This document shows, piece by piece, positions 1,175-6,848 of a stretch of 32,000 nt of DNA. A program made the position numbers and the translations under genes. Below the pieces are notes generated by a model, which was not told the DNA's origin, ran no database searches, and saw nothing but the letters and a program-made list of their open reading frames with translations. Source of the DNA: Acaryochloris marina S15 (lineage in GTDB: Bacteria; Cyanobacteriota; Cyanobacteriia; Thermosynechococcales; Thermosynechococcaceae). The stretch is from assembly GCF_018336915.1 (NCBI RefSeq), contig NZ_CP064923.1:3510001-3542000 (forward strand), in the 5' to 3' direction. Each line of letters begins with the position of its first letter. The first letter of the stretch is position 1.

Positions 1175-1659
1175 GGGCTGCTCCCCTGTCAGATGCATAT
1201 ACCTTTCAGGGTGTGGGATTTCAACAGACGGAACAATGATCACTATCACCCCAGTTCAACACCCCAATCACAGCCCCTACCGCTCATTTCACTGCCATTT
1301 ATTTTGCCGCCGTCGCATGGATTGGGTGATCTGTTTCCAACGAGCTTTGGTGTTGATCTGCGCTTTTTGATCTTGCTGGCGGTACAGATAGGCTTCTTCT
1401 TTGCGGATTAATCGTTTTGAATAAAAGTGACCATGCAGTGCAGGCTTTTGTCAGGATGTGCGAACGATGCAATTTCAGGCTGGGCAGGGGAAGCGGAGTC
1501 AGTGAATTCTATGCAAGCCGACCTATTCAGCAACATCCATCAGCAGAGCGTTAGCCTCAAGAAAGAGTTGCACTACTTCCTTCATAGTTTGTAGCAATGG
1601 TGATGGACTCTAGAGGGTAGCACGTTATTCTAAATGGGAGATCTAACTTGCATACTCTA

Positions 1660-2253
1660 ATGGTTGCCTCCCCAGAACAAGTCCATCTCTCCCCAGAACA
1701 ATATCTTTCCCATGAGGAAGCCAGTCCCATCAAGCATGAATACCGGGATGGGGAAGTCTATGCAATGGCAGGTGCATCAGATGCCCATGTCACCATTGCA
1801 GGCAATCTATTTGCAATCTTACGCAATCACATCAGAGGGTCTGGATGCCGAGTCTATATCTCGGATATGAAAGCACGTGTCAACCCGAACAATCGTTTTT
1901 TCTATCCTGATGTCATGGTGACCTGTGATGATCGCGATCAGGCAACAGCAACCTACAAACAATTTCCCTCCTTGATTGTGGAAGTCCTTTCGGCCTCCAC
2001 TGAAGCTTTTGACCGGGGGGATAAATTTGCCGATTATCAGTCCCTTGAGAGTCTGCAGGAATATGTGTTAATCAACGCTAAACGGCAACGAATTGAGTGC
2101 TTTCGTCGGAGTGAAGGTAGATGGGTTTTGGAAACCTACACCTCTACCAGTGAGACCTTCACGTTGAGTAGCATCAATTACGAGGGAGAGATGGCGGCGA
2201 TCTATGAAGATGTGATTTTTGATCCACCCACTCCTGAGCCGTCTGATCGCTAA
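1660..2253 (+). CDS. Uma2 family (formerly DUF820) restriction-endonuclease-like protein, paralogue 1
   Basis: ORF 1648..2253. The track start is TTG; an in-frame ATG lies at 1660 (MVASPEQVHLSPEQY...). Family hallmarks: HEYRDGEVYAMAG, FYPDVMVTCD, PSLIVEVLSASTE, DRGDKFADY, LQEYVLI. Confidence 0.85.
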   Translation: MVASPEQVHLSPEQYLSHEEASPIKHEYRDGEVYAMAGASDAHVTIAGNLFAILRNHIRGSGCRVYISDMKARVNPNNRFFYPDVMVTCDDRDQATATYKQFPSLIVEVLSASTEAFDRGDKFADYQSLESLQEYVLINAKRQRIECFRRSEGRWVLETYTSTSETFTLSSINYEGEMAAIYEDVIFDPPTPEPSDR

Positions 2254-2382
2254 GCTGTAAGGTCTTAGAAATAATCTTCTTCAACGCAGGTGAACAGAGT
2301 CATGAAGATTTTCAAGTTCTGTGGTGTTGGGAGTTGCTGCGTCATATGATAGATAGCCTGTGTGCTTTCTATCGAAACAATC

Positions 2383-3471
2383 ATGACTCAGTCCTATCGA
2401 ATTACGCTGTTGCCAGGAGATGGTATTGGCCCTGAAATCATGGCCGTGGCCGTTGATATTCTTAAGGTTGTGGGGCAGCAGCAAAATTTGACCTTTGAAT
2501 TTAATGAGGCATTGATTGGAGGAGCGGCCATTGATGCAGTAGAGAACCCGCTACCGAAACAAACCTTAGATGCCTGTCGCCAGAGTGATGCCGTATTGCT
2601 GGCCGCAATTGGGGGCTATAAATGGGACACAATGCCCCGTCATCTCCGTCCTGAGACTGGGCTGTTGGGATTACGGGCAGGACTAGAACTCTTTGCCAAT
2701 CTGAGACCCGCCCAAATTCTGCCCCAGCTGATTGATGCGTCCAGTCTAAAACCTGAGGTGGTTGAAGGCGTGGACATCATGGTGGTGCGAGAGCTAACAG
2801 GCGGCATATATTTCGGCTCACCCAAAGGGGTGTTTAGCACCGAAACGGGGGAGCAACGGGGCGTCAATACAATGGCCTATACCGTGGCAGAGATTGATCG
2901 GATTGGTCGAGTCGCCTTTGAAACGGCCCAAAAACGGAGTGGCAAGCTCTGTTCTGTGGATAAAGCAAATGTGTTGGAAGTGTCGCAACTGTGGCGCGAT
3001 CGCATCACCGCATTGTCATCCGAATACCCTGATGTAGAGCTCTCTCATCTGTACGTGGATAACGCCGCTATGCAGCTCGTCCGCTGGCCCAAACAGTTCG
3101 ACACCATCGTTACCAGTAACCTATTCGGCGATATTCTCTCAGATATTGCTGCCATGCTCACAGGCAGTATCGGCATGTTGCCCTCTGCCAGTTTAGGTGC
3201 GGATGGTCCAGGGGTATTTGAACCGGTTCATGGCTCTGCCCCAGATATTGCGGGTCAGGATAAGGCAAATCCTTTAGCCCAAGTTTTGAGCGTAGCAATG
3301 ATGTTGCGCTATGGGTTGGATCAACCCGCAGCGGCGGATAAAGTTGAGTCCGCTGTGCTGACTTTGTTGGCTCAAGGTTATCGGACAGGTGATATTCAAT
3401 CGCCAGGTACAACGGTCTTAGGTTGTAAGGCCATAGGGGAAACTCTGATCCAGATTTTGAATCAGAGTTAA
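2383..3471 (+). CDS. leuB: 3-isopropylmalate dehydrogenase
   Basis: ORF 2362..3471. The track start is GTG; ATG at 2383 gives the canonical N-terminus [19 protein letters not shown]. Also contains NLFGDILSD and [14 protein letters not shown]. Confidence 0.97.
2996..3003. repeat. HIP1 octamer GCGATCGC
   Basis: Perfect GCGATCGC inside leuB. Confidence 0.9.
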
Positions 3472-3633
3472 ATACTCTCCAACTCTCCATTGGTCATAAA
3501 GTTTAGCTTAATTGAGCAACAATTTTGTTCAAGCATTATAGCTAGTCTACAATCGTTGTTTCACACAGGTGTTGTAGCCAGTGCATCTCTTATAGCGGCA
3601 GACGACCGCTTAGACTCTACGCTTACTAATAAT

Positions 3634-4176
3634 TTAGTCGGGCAGAATAGCACGATCAAAGATACTACCCTTAAGACGAGTATGAACTTCCGTAAGAGTA
3701 GCTCCCATTAGATTACTATCAGTGAAGTCAGCACAACCTCTGGCCTCATCCAAATTGACTCCTCGCATATCAGCTTCCCTGAAGCTAGTTCCCAAAATGC
3801 TAGTAGCCCCCAAATCAGCACCACACAAGTTGACATTATTGAACAGAGCACCTTCGAGGAACGCTTGATACATTTGGGCCATACTGAAGTTGGCTTCATA
3901 ACAGTTAGCCCCTATCAATCTCGTCCCTCCAAGAATGGCATTTTGGAAATTAGCACGTCCAAGCATGGCGCTGGTCAAATCAGCAGCATCCAGGATAGCT
4001 CCACTCAAGTTAGCTCCTTCCAAGTTAGCCGTAATCATTTTGGCCTTTTTCAGTTTGGCACCAGACAGATCAATTCCTCTCAAGTCAGCTTGAATAAAAC
4101 TAGCCTTCCAGAGATTTATACCTCTGAAATCCCGCTCCCCAGCGGCATATCGCTCCATTAATTCCTCAGCAGTCAT
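3634..4176 (-). CDS. Pentapeptide repeat protein
   Basis: ORF 3634..4191, with a TTG track start. ATG at 4176 is preceded by GGGAG on the minus strand. The body is tandem A(D/N)LxX-type pentapeptides (ADLRGIDLSGAKLKKAKMITANLEGANLSGAILDAADL...). The N-terminus MTAEELMERYAAGERDF is typical of this family. Confidence 0.9.
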   Translation of the reverse strand: MTAEELMERYAAGERDFRGINLWKASFIQADLRGIDLSGAKLKKAKMITANLEGANLSGAILDAADLTSAMLGRANFQNAILGGTRLIGANCYEANFSMAQMYQAFLEGALFNNVNLCGADLGATSILGTSFREADMRGVNLDEARGCADFTDSNLMGATLTEVHTRLKGSIFDRAILPD

Positions 4177-4243
4177 CACTACAACTCCCAAAACACAATG
4201 GTTTCAATGCCTCCAGGATTCCACTCCATTTAACCTCAACTTC

Positions 4244-4312
4244 CCAGGCATAAAGATCCTAAACAGTCAGCCCATAGGGGAAACCCTGATTCAGATACTG
4301 AACCAGGGCTGA
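4244..4312 (+). pseudogene. Ghost fragment: a second copy of the last 22 codons plus stop of leuB
   Basis: 4244..4312 translates to [22 protein letters not shown], against the real leuB tail [22 protein letters not shown] at 3403..3471. The offset is exactly 841 nt on the same strand. By my count 50/69 nt are identical with no gaps, the stop codons are in register, and 11 consecutive residues are identical despite 5 synonymous nt changes. Confidence 0.75.
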
Positions 4313-4367
4313 TGGGGAATATAAACACTTAGATCAAGAGAGCAGTCAGACTGCGGGGTAAAACCCT

Positions 4368-5321
4368 TTAGTTCAGAGCTTCAGCACCGCCGACCACCTC
4401 AAGCAGCTCTTGAGTAATCGCTGCTTGCCGAGCCTTGTTATAAGACAAGGTCAAGGTACTAATTAGATCAGAAGCATTATCACTAGCATTGTTCATCGCA
4501 GTCATTCGAGCAGCCAATTCACTGGCGGCTGATTCTTGCAATGCCCGCAGTAGCTGGTTGTTTAGATACAGTGGCAATAAAGCATCCAAAATTTGAATGG
4601 GATTTTGCTCAAAGATCATATCTGAAGGCATTTCCTGGGGAGCAGATCGATCCAATCGTTCGCGCTCCACCTGAAACTCACCTCCTCGAGTGGTTAATCG
4701 GAAGACCTCATCTTCCTCTGCCACCACCAACTCATCAGGGTCGAGAGGAAGTAGGGTTTGGACCACAGGTTTAGAATTCACCAGGGAAAGAAACCGGGTA
4801 TAAATCAACTCAACATGATCAACTGTTTCTGAGAGATACAGCGATAAGAGTTCATCCGCAATACCAGAGGCTTCTTGAGCCGTAGGAATTTGCTCTAAAG
4901 CATCGTAAGTAGCTGAGATTGGCTGATCACGGCGCTGAAAGTACTGAATCGCTTTCCGACCCACGAGGACAAACGTATAGTCAATCCCTTTAGCTTTCAG
5001 TTCATTGGATCGCACTTCAGCTCGTTTGATGGCGTTACTGTTGTAGGCACCACAGAGACCACGGTCTCCAGTGATCACCAACAAACAGACTTTACTTAGA
5101 GCCCGTTCTCGCAGCAGCGGTAATTCCACTTCTTCGAATCGAAGTCGAGCTTGCAAGCCATAGAGGACCTGAGCTAAACGATCAGCGAAGGGACGGGTTG
5201 CTGTCACCTGCTCCTGGGCACGTCGGACCTTGGCGGCGGCCACTAGCCGCATCGCCTCAGTAATTTTCTTGGTATTCTTGACCGTCGAAATGCGATCACG
5301 AATCGATTTGAGGTTTGGCAT
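4368..5321 (-). CDS. atpG: F0F1 ATP synthase subunit gamma (atpC in cyanobacterial nomenclature)
   Basis: N-terminus [36 protein letters not shown] and C-terminus [27 protein letters not shown] are canonical gamma termini. It is the last gene of the atp operon. Confidence 0.97.
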
Positions 5322-5330
5322 AATTCCCTC

Positions 5331-6848
5331 CTAGACCGCAGCCATAAAAGCTTTCTTGAAATCAGCGATGGCTGTTTTTAGAATCCCTTCGGCTTCATCA
5401 CCCATCTTCTTCTCGCCTCGGACCAAGTCACCATATTTGGCGTGGTTGGCTTTCAAATCATCCCGCATCCCTTGGACAAATTCTGTCACTTTATCTGTAG
5501 GGACATCATCAAGATAGCCATTGGTACCGGCATAAATCACTGCAACCATCTCTTCTACAGGTAGAGGAGAATATTGAGGCTGTTTCAGAATTTCCCGGAG
5601 GCGTGCTCCACGAGCCAACTGATTTTGAGTCGCTTGATCCAAGTCAGAGGCAAACTGAGCAAAGGCTTCCAGTTCAGCAAACTGAGCCAATTCCAGCTTC
5701 AACTTACCGGCAACCTGTTTCATCGCTTTAATCTGAGCAGCAGATCCCACTCGGGACACTGAAATACCAGCATTAATGGCAGGACGCAGACCGGCGTTAA
5801 ACAAGTCAGAAGACAAGAAGATCTGACCGTCAGTAATGGAAATAACGTTAGTAGGAATATAAGCCGACACGTCACCCGCTTGGGTTTCCACAATCGGTAG
5901 TGCGGTCATACTTCCTTCACCCAGTTCAGGGCTTAGCTTTGCAGCCCGCTCCAACAAACGAGAGTGGAGATAGAACACATCACCAGGATAGGCTTCACGT
6001 CCGGGTGGACGACGGAGTAGCAAGGACATCTGACGATAGGCCTGAGCTTGCTTGGAGAGGTCATCGTAGATCACCAAGGTGTGCTTGCCTTTGTACATAA
6101 AGTACTCAGCAATAGCTGCGCCAGTATAAGGAGCCAAATATTGTAGAGTGGCGGGGTCGTTAGCGTTAGCAGCAACCACAACAGTGTAGTCAAGGGCGCC
6201 CCGTTCTCTCAGGACTTCAACTACCTGAGCCACGGTAGAGGCTTTCTGACCAATAGCAACGTAGACACAAATCACATCTTCAGACTTTTGGTTGAGGATG
6301 GTGTCAATCGCAACGGCTGTTTTACCCGTTTGACGGTCACCAATAATCAACTCTCGCTGGCCTCGGCCAATAGGCACCATGGAGTCAATCGCAGTGATGC
6401 CCGTTTGCATGGGCTCATACACAGACTTCCGCTCAATAATGCCAGGGGCAGGAGACTCAATCAGGCGAGTTTCAGATGTGTTCATATCGCCCTTACCATC
6501 GATGGGGCGAGCTAGAGCATCTAGAACGCGACCAACCAAGGCATCACCCACAGGGATTTGGGCGATTTTACCAGTTGAACGAACGGTACTCCCTTCCTGG
6601 AGTTCGCGACCGTCTCCCATCAGCACCACACCGACGTTATCCTCTTCCAGGTTGAGGGCAACACCTACAGTGCCATCTTCAAATTCTAAGAGTTCTCCGG
6701 CCATGGCTTTTTCTAAGCCATAAACACGGGCGATACCGTCACCCACTTGGAGTACGGTACCAACATTGTCAACTTTGACTTGTTGATCGTATTGCTCAAT
6801 CTGTTGGCGAATAATATTGCTAATTTCGTCGGGTCTGATGCTTACCAT
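5331..6848 (-). CDS. atpA: F0F1 ATP synthase subunit alpha
   Basis: Walker A motif GDRQTGKT plus full-length similarity to alpha subunits ([21 protein letters not shown]). Confidence 0.98.

Follow-up and report, generated by a model that had tools for sequence, protein, structure and literature searches.

A second leuB terminus beside the atp operon

Why does the 3' end of leuB recur downstream of the intact gene, beside the end of the atp operon, and what has kept part of that second copy recognizable? The window is the whole 32,000-nt stretch of Acaryochloris marina S15 DNA that was analyzed (contig NZ_CP064923.1, positions 3,510,001 to 3,542,000), and the features of the leuB-atpC interval are listed in Table 1. 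Pairwise comparison of the working leuB tail (3403-3471) with the downstream copy (4244-4312, hereafter the ghost) gave 50/69 identical nucleotides without gaps and, after translation, 14 identical residues out of 22, with both stop codons in register and 11 consecutive identical residues at the tail ends. These counts had been given in the initial annotation and were reproduced exactly on re-alignment. An independent repeat search also recovered the tail pair (D1; 63 nt, 75%, spacing 841), and its 33-nt core occurred twice in the window compared to 0.00 expected occurrences in 100 shuffles. The sole gene between the two tails is the minus-strand pentapeptide gene (3634-4176).

The 11 shared codons contain five nucleotide differences between working tail and ghost (act/acc, atc/att, att/ata, ttg/ctg, and aat/aac), all five of them synonymous, for which the probability under random substitution is 2e-4 to 1e-3. 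The pattern would arise because both tails are once-functional leuB alleles, and the earlier suggestion that both had once been translated was upheld, with the last 39 nt of the ghost matching the functional leuB tail of the relative L096 at 37 of 39 positions.

Table 1. Features of the leuB-atpC interval, numbered from the first nucleotide of the window.
Feature	Positions	Strand	Evidence or remark
leuB (3-isopropylmalate dehydrogenase), intact, 362 aa	2383..3471	+	ORF; Pfam PF00180, E 2e-135
Current working leuB tail, repeat copy 1, arrived with inserted block	3403..3471	+	
Hairpin inside working leuB tail	3441..3469	-	More stable on minus-strand RNA
3' flank of pentapeptide gene, within strain-variable cassette	3472..3633	-	
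Pentapeptide-repeat protein gene, 180 aa, inserted cargo	3634..4176	-	Pfam PF00805, E 4.8e-31
Upstream region of the pentapeptide gene, right-hand end of inserted block	4177..4243	-	Homology to pMB05 paralogue
Ghost, first 30 nt, decaying part of displaced native leuB tail	4244..4273	+	
Ghost, last 39 nt, conserved part	4274..4312	+	
13-bp hairpin on atpC-sense RNA, then UUUCCCC; proposed atp operon terminator/3' stabilizer	4282..4310	-	
Original leuB-atpC spacer, still in place	4313..4367	.	Aligns with L096 and L092 spacers
atpC (ATP synthase gamma subunit), last gene of atp operon	4368..5321	-	Pfam PF00231, E 5.5e-98

The empty site and the polarity of the displacement

Close strains were defined as those with an AtpC identical to that of the window (n = 8, L081-L088), in all of which the atp operon order was seen. 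The ghost was present in nine of nine strains examined, i.e., the window and these eight, and the cassette has meanwhile been swapped between three allele classes, such that the repeat is not a recent strain-specific scar. More distant lineages retained the empty site, with leuB directly convergent on atpC and no pentapeptide gene between them, in L090/L091 (56 nt from leuB to atpC), L092 and L094 (83 nt), and L096 (~85 nt), bearing out the proposal that the ancestral leuB was convergent on the atp operon. The window LeuB was 95% identical to LeuB of L092, L094, and L096.

In L096 and L092, the spacer past the stop of the working leuB (TGGGGAATATAAA...GAGAGCAGTC) aligned with window positions 4313..4367, which separate the ghost stop at 4312 from the atpC stop codon (4368-4370) 55 nt away. 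Ghost plus spacer aligned to the real leuB tail plus spacer of L096 with a score of 116, compared to 47 for the window's own tail. The ghost and its spacer are consequently orthologous by position to the real tail in the relatives, which makes the ghost the native copy and the working tail the later arrival; the mirror-image scenario, considered equally possible in the initial annotation, is excluded. With an in-register direct repeat of the gene's 3' end, empty-site relatives that match the ghost, and a ghost covered by no + strand ORF of at least 20 aa, the leuB relic is a clean example of a known scar type, the displaced native 3' fragment. A LeuB scan of genome contigs returned only relatives at 83% identity or less, none with atpC within 6 kb of leuB, and exact-sequence look-ups gave a match for AtpC and none for the window LeuB or the pentapeptide protein. 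The left flank of leuB was rearranged in every lineage, with homology ending ~81 nt upstream of the start, and is therefore compatible with import of the tail only as well as of the whole gene.

The right-hand junction and the origin of the working tail

The region at 4177..4243 was homologous to sequence lying upstream of a pentapeptide paralogue carried by the A. marina Moss Beach plasmid pMB05, and the local alignment stopped at 4243 although the query reached 4420. A motif conserved in the pentapeptide upstream region (TTGAGGTTAAAT; 4227-4238, + strand) was also identified upstream of the L098 and L099 homologues. Homology to the paralogue extends up to 4243 and homology to the leuB tail begins at 4244, identifying 4243/4244 as a non-homologous join, and the end of paralogue homology at this exact position supported the claim that a block of leuB tail plus pentapeptide gene had been inserted there. 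Homology-facilitated illegitimate recombination, the mechanism proposed for this event, is a candidate that agrees with that join on its illegitimate side, but the donor arrangement was not found among the contexts of the homologues: no donor with leuB adjoining this pentapeptide gene was recovered, and P0122, P0123, and the plasmid paralogues do not lie beside leuB.

The leuB body resembles the L092/L096 type, whereas the codon choices of the working tail and the 11 nt past its stop (TAAAyMCTCC) were closer to the L089/L090 type than to the ghost/L092/L096 type. The last 99 nt of leuB contain five lineage-informative sites only, which are split 3:2, and sliding identity of the window leuB against L092 displayed no clear breakpoint, with polymorphism increasing toward the 3' end of the gene. 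A foreign origin of the working tail is weakly suggested by three of the five informative sites together with the 11 nt past the stop. The 3:2 split and the missing donor would also suit a local duplication, in which the 69-nt tail was copied in place during insertion by a staggered break or template switch and diverged later without any foreign allele, as would L093, where the left-hand context is that of the window and the real leuB tail has ATA and GGC in common with the ghost. However, with the ghost 37/39 identical to L096, nearly all of the 8/39 differences would then fall in the constrained working tail, and several of these differences, like the 11 nt past the stop, agree with the L089/L090 type, which is more distant; local duplication is an unlikely account, but one that deserves some weight. 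Clearly less probable is a site-specific integration in which an integrase element targeted the leuB 3' end with a substitute tail and subsequently shrank until the pentapeptide gene was left. The architecture is that of icd, e14, and icdC in Escherichia coli K-12 (PMC13626634) and the rise of polymorphism toward the leuB 3' end points the same way, but no recombinase gene was identified in the 772-nt block or adjoining it, where the neighbors are leuB and atpC. Moreover, the right junction falls at the end of the pentapeptide upstream region rather than at an att-like core or at the repeat core, and the two tails share identical runs of at most 13 nt in the window (CCATAGGGGAAAC) and at most 8 nt in other strains.

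Non-coding state and uneven conservation of the ghost

Under the preferred reading, insertion of a block that carried its own leuB tail, the ghost is a stranded piece of coding sequence. Judged by its sequence it is non-coding, because it contains an in-frame TAG in L082/L088 and has lost its stop in L083; no + strand ORF of at least 20 aa covers it in the window. The ghost could in principle encode a small protein, either as a + strand peptide in the leuB frame or through a 30-aa minus-strand ORF (4236-4328; MFIFPISPGSVSESGFPLW...) of which the N-terminal 19 residues are nearly the same in L097 (MFIFPVSPGSVSESGFPLW). The + frame lacks a start codon in addition to the above variants, while the minus-strand ORF shows I-to-V, I-to-S, and S-to-P substitutions between close strains and is wholly different in its C-terminal part in L097, its conservation following from that of the nucleotides. 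This reading is highly improbable and was rejected on the frame-breaking variants.

Conservation within the ghost is uneven. The first 30 nt were identical at 19/30 positions to the working tail of the window and at 17-19/30 to the tails of relatives, with an in-group pi of 0.17 that was the highest among alignable segments, compared to 0.044 for the last 39 nt. Between the window and L096, identity was 17/30 (57%) in the first 30 nt, 37/39 in the last 39 nt, 37/55 in the spacer, and ~80% in atpC; between lineages, the last 39 nt were 95-97% identical as opposed to 67-82% for the spacer and about 80-90% for atpC. In L097, the relic consists of the last 39 nt only (38/39 identical to the window), located next to an unrelated gene at a distance of 56 nt from atpC, and the break coincides precisely with the beginning of the 39-nt unit, other sequence having wholly taken the place of the 30 nt that precede it. 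The earlier view that the two tails diverged under translation rather than by decay thus holds in that both were once translated, but the first 30 nt of the ghost are decaying and its last 39 nt are apparently kept as a hairpin.

A predicted hairpin facing the atp operon

On the atpC-sense transcript strand, the conserved part of the ghost is predicted to fold into a 13-bp stem-loop starting 58 nt past the atpC stop, at -21.3 kcal/mol (z -4.2) on the minus strand and -16.5 kcal/mol (z -2.5) on the plus strand. On the same strand, tails of the ghost/L092/L096 type gave -19 to -21.6 kcal/mol (z -4.2 to -6.2), and the hairpin was stronger on the atpC-sense than on the leuB-sense strand in the window and in all five other sequences folded. 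Pairing was preserved in 96.4% of cells across 15 distinct sequences, and an A-to-G change in the L082-type ghost converts a G.U to a G-C pair in the stem. Folding of the whole 204-nt atpC-to-pentapeptide intergenic RNA was unremarkable (z -0.67), and only the local hairpin stands out. Covariation was modest, with two pairs changed on both sides in 15 distinct tails and the observed values reached by 36-44 of 500 shuffles. Extra third-position conservation in the last 12 codons of functional leuB was not significant (0.64 versus 0.54, rank 44 of 351 windows), and this mild elevation suggests that the hairpin is partly a by-product of the LIQ-I-LNQ codons.

A consensus terminator scan called neither the ghost hairpin nor that of the working tail; the ghost possesses the stem-loop of an intrinsic terminator but only three U (UUUCCCC) in place of the U-rich tract. 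No Rfam family was found over 3300-4500 at E up to 1. A second, canonical hairpin lies in the spacer of L092, L094, and L096, where the one in the leuB tail may not serve as the principal terminator. The element resembles intrinsic and bidirectional terminators in being a stable stem-loop shortly past an operon end, between ancestrally convergent genes, and stronger on one strand, and differs from the usual ones in that the ancestral hairpin lies within the last 10 codons of the convergent gene's coding sequence and has a UUU tract only. The balance tilts slightly toward a role for the ghost hairpin as terminator or 3' stabilizer of the atp operon.

The last 39 nt might instead be functionless and look conserved owing to a fairly recent insertion combined with a low-diversity haplotype beside atpC. 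In-group diversity falls smoothly from the cassette to atpC (0.17, 0.044, 0.027, and 0.005), so that the low diversity of the last 39 nt could be partly positional, and both the weak covariation and the short U tract would fit. Such a position effect is hard to reconcile with the identity of the last 39 nt between lineages, which exceeds that of the spacers and of atpC itself, with the loss of similarity in the directly adjoining 30 nt, or with the coincidence of the L097 break with the start of the 39-nt unit. A functionless ghost therefore seems doubtful, on a par with local duplication.

Proposed history and comparison with known systems

The identity of the relic, its polarity, the junction, the non-coding state, and the uneven conservation are held with high confidence. 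The history that joins them, a displaced native leuB tail whose last 39 nt are kept as an atp hairpin, is given a probability of about 0.6. In the ancestor of the A. marina clade, leuB would have lain head-on to the end of the atp operon with stops about 55-85 nt apart. A block comprising a replacement leuB tail, an opposite-strand pentapeptide-repeat gene, and the upstream region of that gene would then have entered leuB at a point 69 nt ahead of the stop, the reading frame staying complete via the replacement tail and the native last 69 nt becoming stranded beside atpC. The stranded sequence would have ceased to be translated; its first 30 nt would be decaying, whereas its last 39 nt would be held near-constant because on the atp transcript they form the 13-bp hairpin followed by UUUCCCC, ~58 nt past the atpC stop, which most likely ends or stabilizes the atp mRNA. 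The working tail bears the same kind of hairpin, which would now face the pentapeptide gene.

One of the closest parallels is E. coli K-12, where icd is completed by a tail borne on the e14 element, followed by cargo and then by the displaced native 3' fragment icdC, and where the icd and icdC tails show mostly synonymous or conservative differences (PMC13626634). Both cases involve an Iso_dh dehydrogenase gene with its frame kept intact by the inserted tail and the native C-terminal fragment at the far end. In contrast, the e14 prophage is 15 kb long, encodes an integrase, and can excise, while the insert in leuB measures 772 nt, contains a single pentapeptide gene but no recombinase, and left a relic of 69 nt, part of which, unlike icdC, appears to be selected in its own right. 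Orphan 3' ends of T6SS effector and Rhs genes arise from a homology anchor in a conserved upstream gene and an illegitimate downstream join, with the old 3' end kept (PMC5361080). As in those arrays, alleles at the leuB locus are still exchanged by ordinary homologous recombination; in contrast to them, no toxin/immunity logic is evident (PADLOC negative) and a single displacement is recorded.

The locus is a small resolved case of a single gene wedged between two essential transcription units with neither harmed, for which the empty site, the filled site, the nucleotide-level junction, and the polarity have all been established. It also features a dead coding sequence that seemingly survives through a role on the opposite strand, reminding annotators that a regulatory element can hide in what looks like a conserved "pseudogene fragment", and it is useful for the study of terminators inside convergent genes.

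A hypervariable pentapeptide cassette

The inserted gene has become a cassette that is hypervariable at the level of strains, and the site marks such a pentapeptide-repeat locus in A. marina. Its product scored 106.4 bits against Pfam PF00805 (cut-off 20.2), and three allele classes of 166, 175, and 180 aa with ~45% identity were found in strains with identical AtpC, the gene being hypervariable past codon ~20. On the leuB side, strains diverge ~10-15 nt past the leuB stop, and the stretch there is 59-162 nt long depending on the allele, with 59-69 nt from the pentapeptide stop to the leuB stop in the L084/L081 alleles and 162 nt in the window. PADLOC returned no match for any of the three pentapeptide alleles, and a consensus promoter scan called no pentapeptide gene promoter in 4177-4312.

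The hairpin within the working leuB tail folded at -15.0 kcal/mol (z -3.9) on the minus strand and -12.0 kcal/mol (z -2.0) on the plus strand, and could act as a terminator of the convergent pentapeptide gene. More speculatively, the last 13 leuB codons might have a dual use as coding sequence on one strand and atp terminator on the other, with entering genes having to bring or copy a tail and the hairpin directing a cassette slot. If true, hairpin-bearing tails would constitute a slot that takes different pentapeptide genes without plain homologous recombination; we regard this as a long shot. Relatives of these pentapeptide genes adjoin Y1 (IS200/RAYT-like) or IS256 transposase genes.

The two leuB tails and their coding state

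The end of the intact leuB gene (the working tail) and the displaced second leuB tail near atpC (the ghost tail) aligned without gaps with 50/69 identical nucleotides and 14/22 identical residues, exactly as counted in the initial annotation, including the run of eleven identical residues at the end of both tails where the five nucleotide differences were all synonymous (5/5) and the stop codons were in register. The pair was also recovered by an independent repeat search (63 nt, 75%, spacing 841), its 33-nt core occurred only at these two sites in the window where shuffles expect none, and placing five substitutions at random in the eleven codons would yield synonymous changes alone at a probability of 2e-4 to 1e-3. 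The ghost codons ACC, ATT, CTG, and AAC were those of the functional tails in the more distant relatives L092 and L096, and the working tail had ACT, ATC, TTG/CTG, and AAT, in part like relatives L089/L090. This agreed with the earlier proposal that the tails differ synonymously because both alleles were once translated. No plus-strand open reading frame and no start codon were identified over the ghost tail, its ninth codon was TAG in the close strains L082 and L088, and its stop was lost in L083; judged from sequence, the ghost tail is non-coding.

Features of the leuB-atpC region in the window and, where named, in related records
Feature	Record	Position	Strand	Remarks
Uma2-family gene	window	1648-2253		Putative restriction endonuclease; PADLOC candidate defense family PDC-S03, E 9e-30
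Region where upstream leuB homology ends	window	2298-2382
leuB	window	2383-3471	+	Pfam Iso_dh; confirmed
Working tail	window	3403-3471	+
Working-tail hairpin (predicted)	window	3441-3469	-	-15 kcal/mol, z -3.9
Hypervariable cassette	window; L081-L088	3472-4120; 7157-7863
Promoter-like site	window	3535-3564	-	GTGAAA, 18-nt spacer, TATAAT; 10/12 matches
Pentapeptide-repeat gene	window	3634-4176	-	Confirmed
Missing 11-nt stretch	window	4202/4203
TTGAGGTTAAAT motif	window	4227-4238	-
TTGAGGTTAAAT motif	L100; L098; L099	~2600; 3926-3940; 612-628
Ghost tail	window	4244-4312	+
atpC	window	4368-5321	-	Convergent gene; confirmed
90-aa gene and 39-nt remnant	L097	400-540	+	Gene precedes remnant
Additional spacer hairpin	L092; L096	~6140-6170; ~1500-1530		L096 as reverse complement
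Y1_Tnp match	L098; L099	4760-5293; 1858-2376		Weak
IS256 transposase	L100 (pMB05)	704-1945

The ghost tail as the native end of leuB

The AtpC of the window was identical in eight assemblies (L081-L088), including CP071717.1 (GCA_021497025.1) from Acaryochloris marina strain Moss Beach (PMC9029297). The ghost tail lay beside atpC at the same position in 8/8 of these assemblies with a pentapeptide-repeat gene between it and leuB in 8/8, and the scar is therefore common to the clade rather than strain-specific. More distant relatives were located via LeuB homologues and a DNA pattern, and leuB was directly convergent on atpC without a pentapeptide gene in L090/L091 (LeuB identity to the window 87%; 56 nt between stops), L092 and L094 (95%; 83 nt each), and L096 (95%; about 85 nt); in the window, 55 nt separated the ghost stop from the atpC stop. 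These relatives show the ancestral layout that was inferred in the initial annotation.

In both L096 and L092, the functional tail and spacer aligned with the ghost tail and its following spacer, including the TGA stop and TGGGGAATATAAA...GAGAGCAGTC; the local alignment score of the ghost was 116 against L096 vs. 47 against the window's own tail. Its last 39 nt matched L096 at 37, L092 at 34, and the working tail of its own genome at 31 positions. As the ghost tail is closer to the L096 and L092 functional tails than to its own working tail, it is the native leuB end, still at its original site, and the working tail is the newcomer; the mirror-image scenario, formerly considered equally possible, can be set aside.

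Uneven conservation and a predicted hairpin on the atpC strand

Up to a third of positions in the first 30 nt of the ghost tail differed among the close strains (pi 0.17), with 57-63% identity to the relatives' tails, and the last 39 nt had a pi of 0.044 and identities of 95% to L096 and 97% to L097; in the latter two comparisons the adjoining spacer was 67-82% and atpC about 80-90% identical. The metagenome contig L097 (1.3 kb), whose atpC is diverged, retains just the last 39 nt of the leuB tail, 56 nt from atpC and downstream of an unrelated 90-aa gene, with neither leuB nor a pentapeptide gene. This contig (Ga0114957_1078635) belongs to another Acaryochloris-like lineage, and the C-terminus of the 90-aa protein is hydrophobic.

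On atpC-strand RNA, the ghost end was predicted to form a stem of 13 bp closed by a 3-nt loop, with UUUCCCC after it (-21.3 kcal/mol, z -4.2), compared to -16.5 (z -2.5) on the leuB strand where the fold is weaker because G.U pairs turn into A.C mismatches. The L097 relic, the ghost of L082 type, and the functional tails of L090, L092, and L096 likewise folded more stably on the atpC strand; standard pairs occupied 96.4% of pair positions on that strand across 15 distinct tail sequences, and an A-to-G change in the L082-type ghost turned a G.U into a G-C pair. The hairpin occurred in three settings (within leuB, between the pentapeptide gene and atpC, and beside an unrelated gene), and what stayed constant was its position a short distance past the atpC stop. 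The most economical reading is that the conserved part may serve as a terminator or 3'-end stabilizer of the atp-operon transcript, and the ghost tail would remain near its translated state because the proposed hairpin constrains its sequence. Several results temper this reading: the hairpin was not called by a consensus terminator scan and its U tract is short, covariation across the tail sequences was not decisive, and synonymous sites in the last 12 codons of functional leuB genes exceeded the average conservation of the gene only mildly.

A further caveat is that L092, L094, and L096 carried an additional canonical hairpin in the leuB-atpC spacer that was absent from the window's clade and L097; its stem is perfect, with T's after it on the atpC strand (e.g., GTCAAGACTCCG...CGGAGTCTTGA). 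The working tail has an equivalent predicted hairpin facing the pentapeptide gene, at a distance from the gene's stop that varies with the allele (59-162 nt).

Junction and entry of the inserted block

A search of plasmid records identified a pentapeptide paralogue on the Moss Beach plasmid pMB05 with homology to the first codons of the gene and to the 67 nt upstream. As this homology stopped at 4243 (query to 4420) and leuB-tail homology began at 4244, the inserted block extended from a leuB tail across the pentapeptide gene to the far end of the upstream region belonging to that gene, and its join to native leuB lies 69 nt ahead of the stop. The end of the paralogue homology places the illegitimate join, previously put near 4243/4244, within a few bases. 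The shared upstream region starts with the motif TTGAGGTTAAAT, which also precedes the homologues on two metagenome contigs (L098 and L099). In this subfamily the motif is conserved on the chromosome, plasmid pMB05, and both contigs at 60-75 nt ahead of the start codon; it is possibly a promoter or operator and does not match sigma-70 consensus spacing. An 11-nt stretch (TTyyCmCCTGGC-like) missing from the upstream region in the window was present in 8/8 close strains and the plasmid paralogue.

The insertion architecture is that of icd/e14/icdC in E. coli K-12 (PMC13626634) and also matches the orphan 3' ends that displacement leaves at T6SS effector and Rhs loci, where homology-facilitated illegitimate recombination is the proposed mechanism (PMC5361080). 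The scar is a well-resolved instance of this already known type. It differs from these cases by its small insert, the lack of a recombinase, and a relic part that appears retained for an opposite-strand function. The inserted block contains no recombinase gene, which argues against an e14-like element. The initial observation is confirmed and its interpretation largely holds; the polarity is now settled, the scar is older than a strain-specific event, and the predicted hairpin adds a structural constraint.

One non-homologous junction is shown (4243/4244). The leuB body was of L092/L096 type at most lineage-informative sites, and its last 99 nt had just five such sites, split 3:2. The 11 nt past the working stop (TAAAyMCTCC) were like L089/L090 and not the ghost type, which weakly favors import of the working tail. 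No donor arrangement was found among the closest pentapeptide homologues, none of which was beside leuB; these adjoined Y1-type or IS256 transposase genes, a hint that mobile elements may carry this subfamily along. Upstream of leuB, homology to L092 or L096 ended ~81 nt before the start codon and the left flank differed in every lineage from there, and is therefore uninformative on block entry. The left neighbor was Uma2 in the window (three Uma2 genes in L093), Peptidase_M50 in L092/L094, and a VWA/GEVED protein in L089/L090; leuB plus a short leader appears to behave as a unit with its left side repeatedly rearranged.

Strain-level variation of the cassette

Pentapeptide alleles in strains with identical AtpC formed three classes (166, 175, and 180 aa) with about 45% protein identity that have only the upstream region and the initial ~19 residues in common, and strains carrying different classes had atpA at least 99.7% identical. 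PADLOC gave no match for any of the three alleles. The 180-aa class alone has a long 3' flank, and a promoter-like site there is probably due to chance, as its count was within the shuffle range.

Diversity among the nine close strains was maximal at the cassette and fell into both flanks. Toward the atp side, pi decreased through the two ghost segments to 0.027 in the spacer, 0.005 in atpC, and 0.002 in atpA; along leuB, pi was ~0.02 over the first 500 nt and climbed to 0.06-0.11 at the 3' end and tail, a pattern resembling that of recombination tracts that derive from diverged donors and stop within leuB. Ghost variants and cassette classes were reassorted among strains, which together with the diversity peak fits repeated allele exchange by homologous recombination, and the locus became a strain-level hot spot following the insertion.
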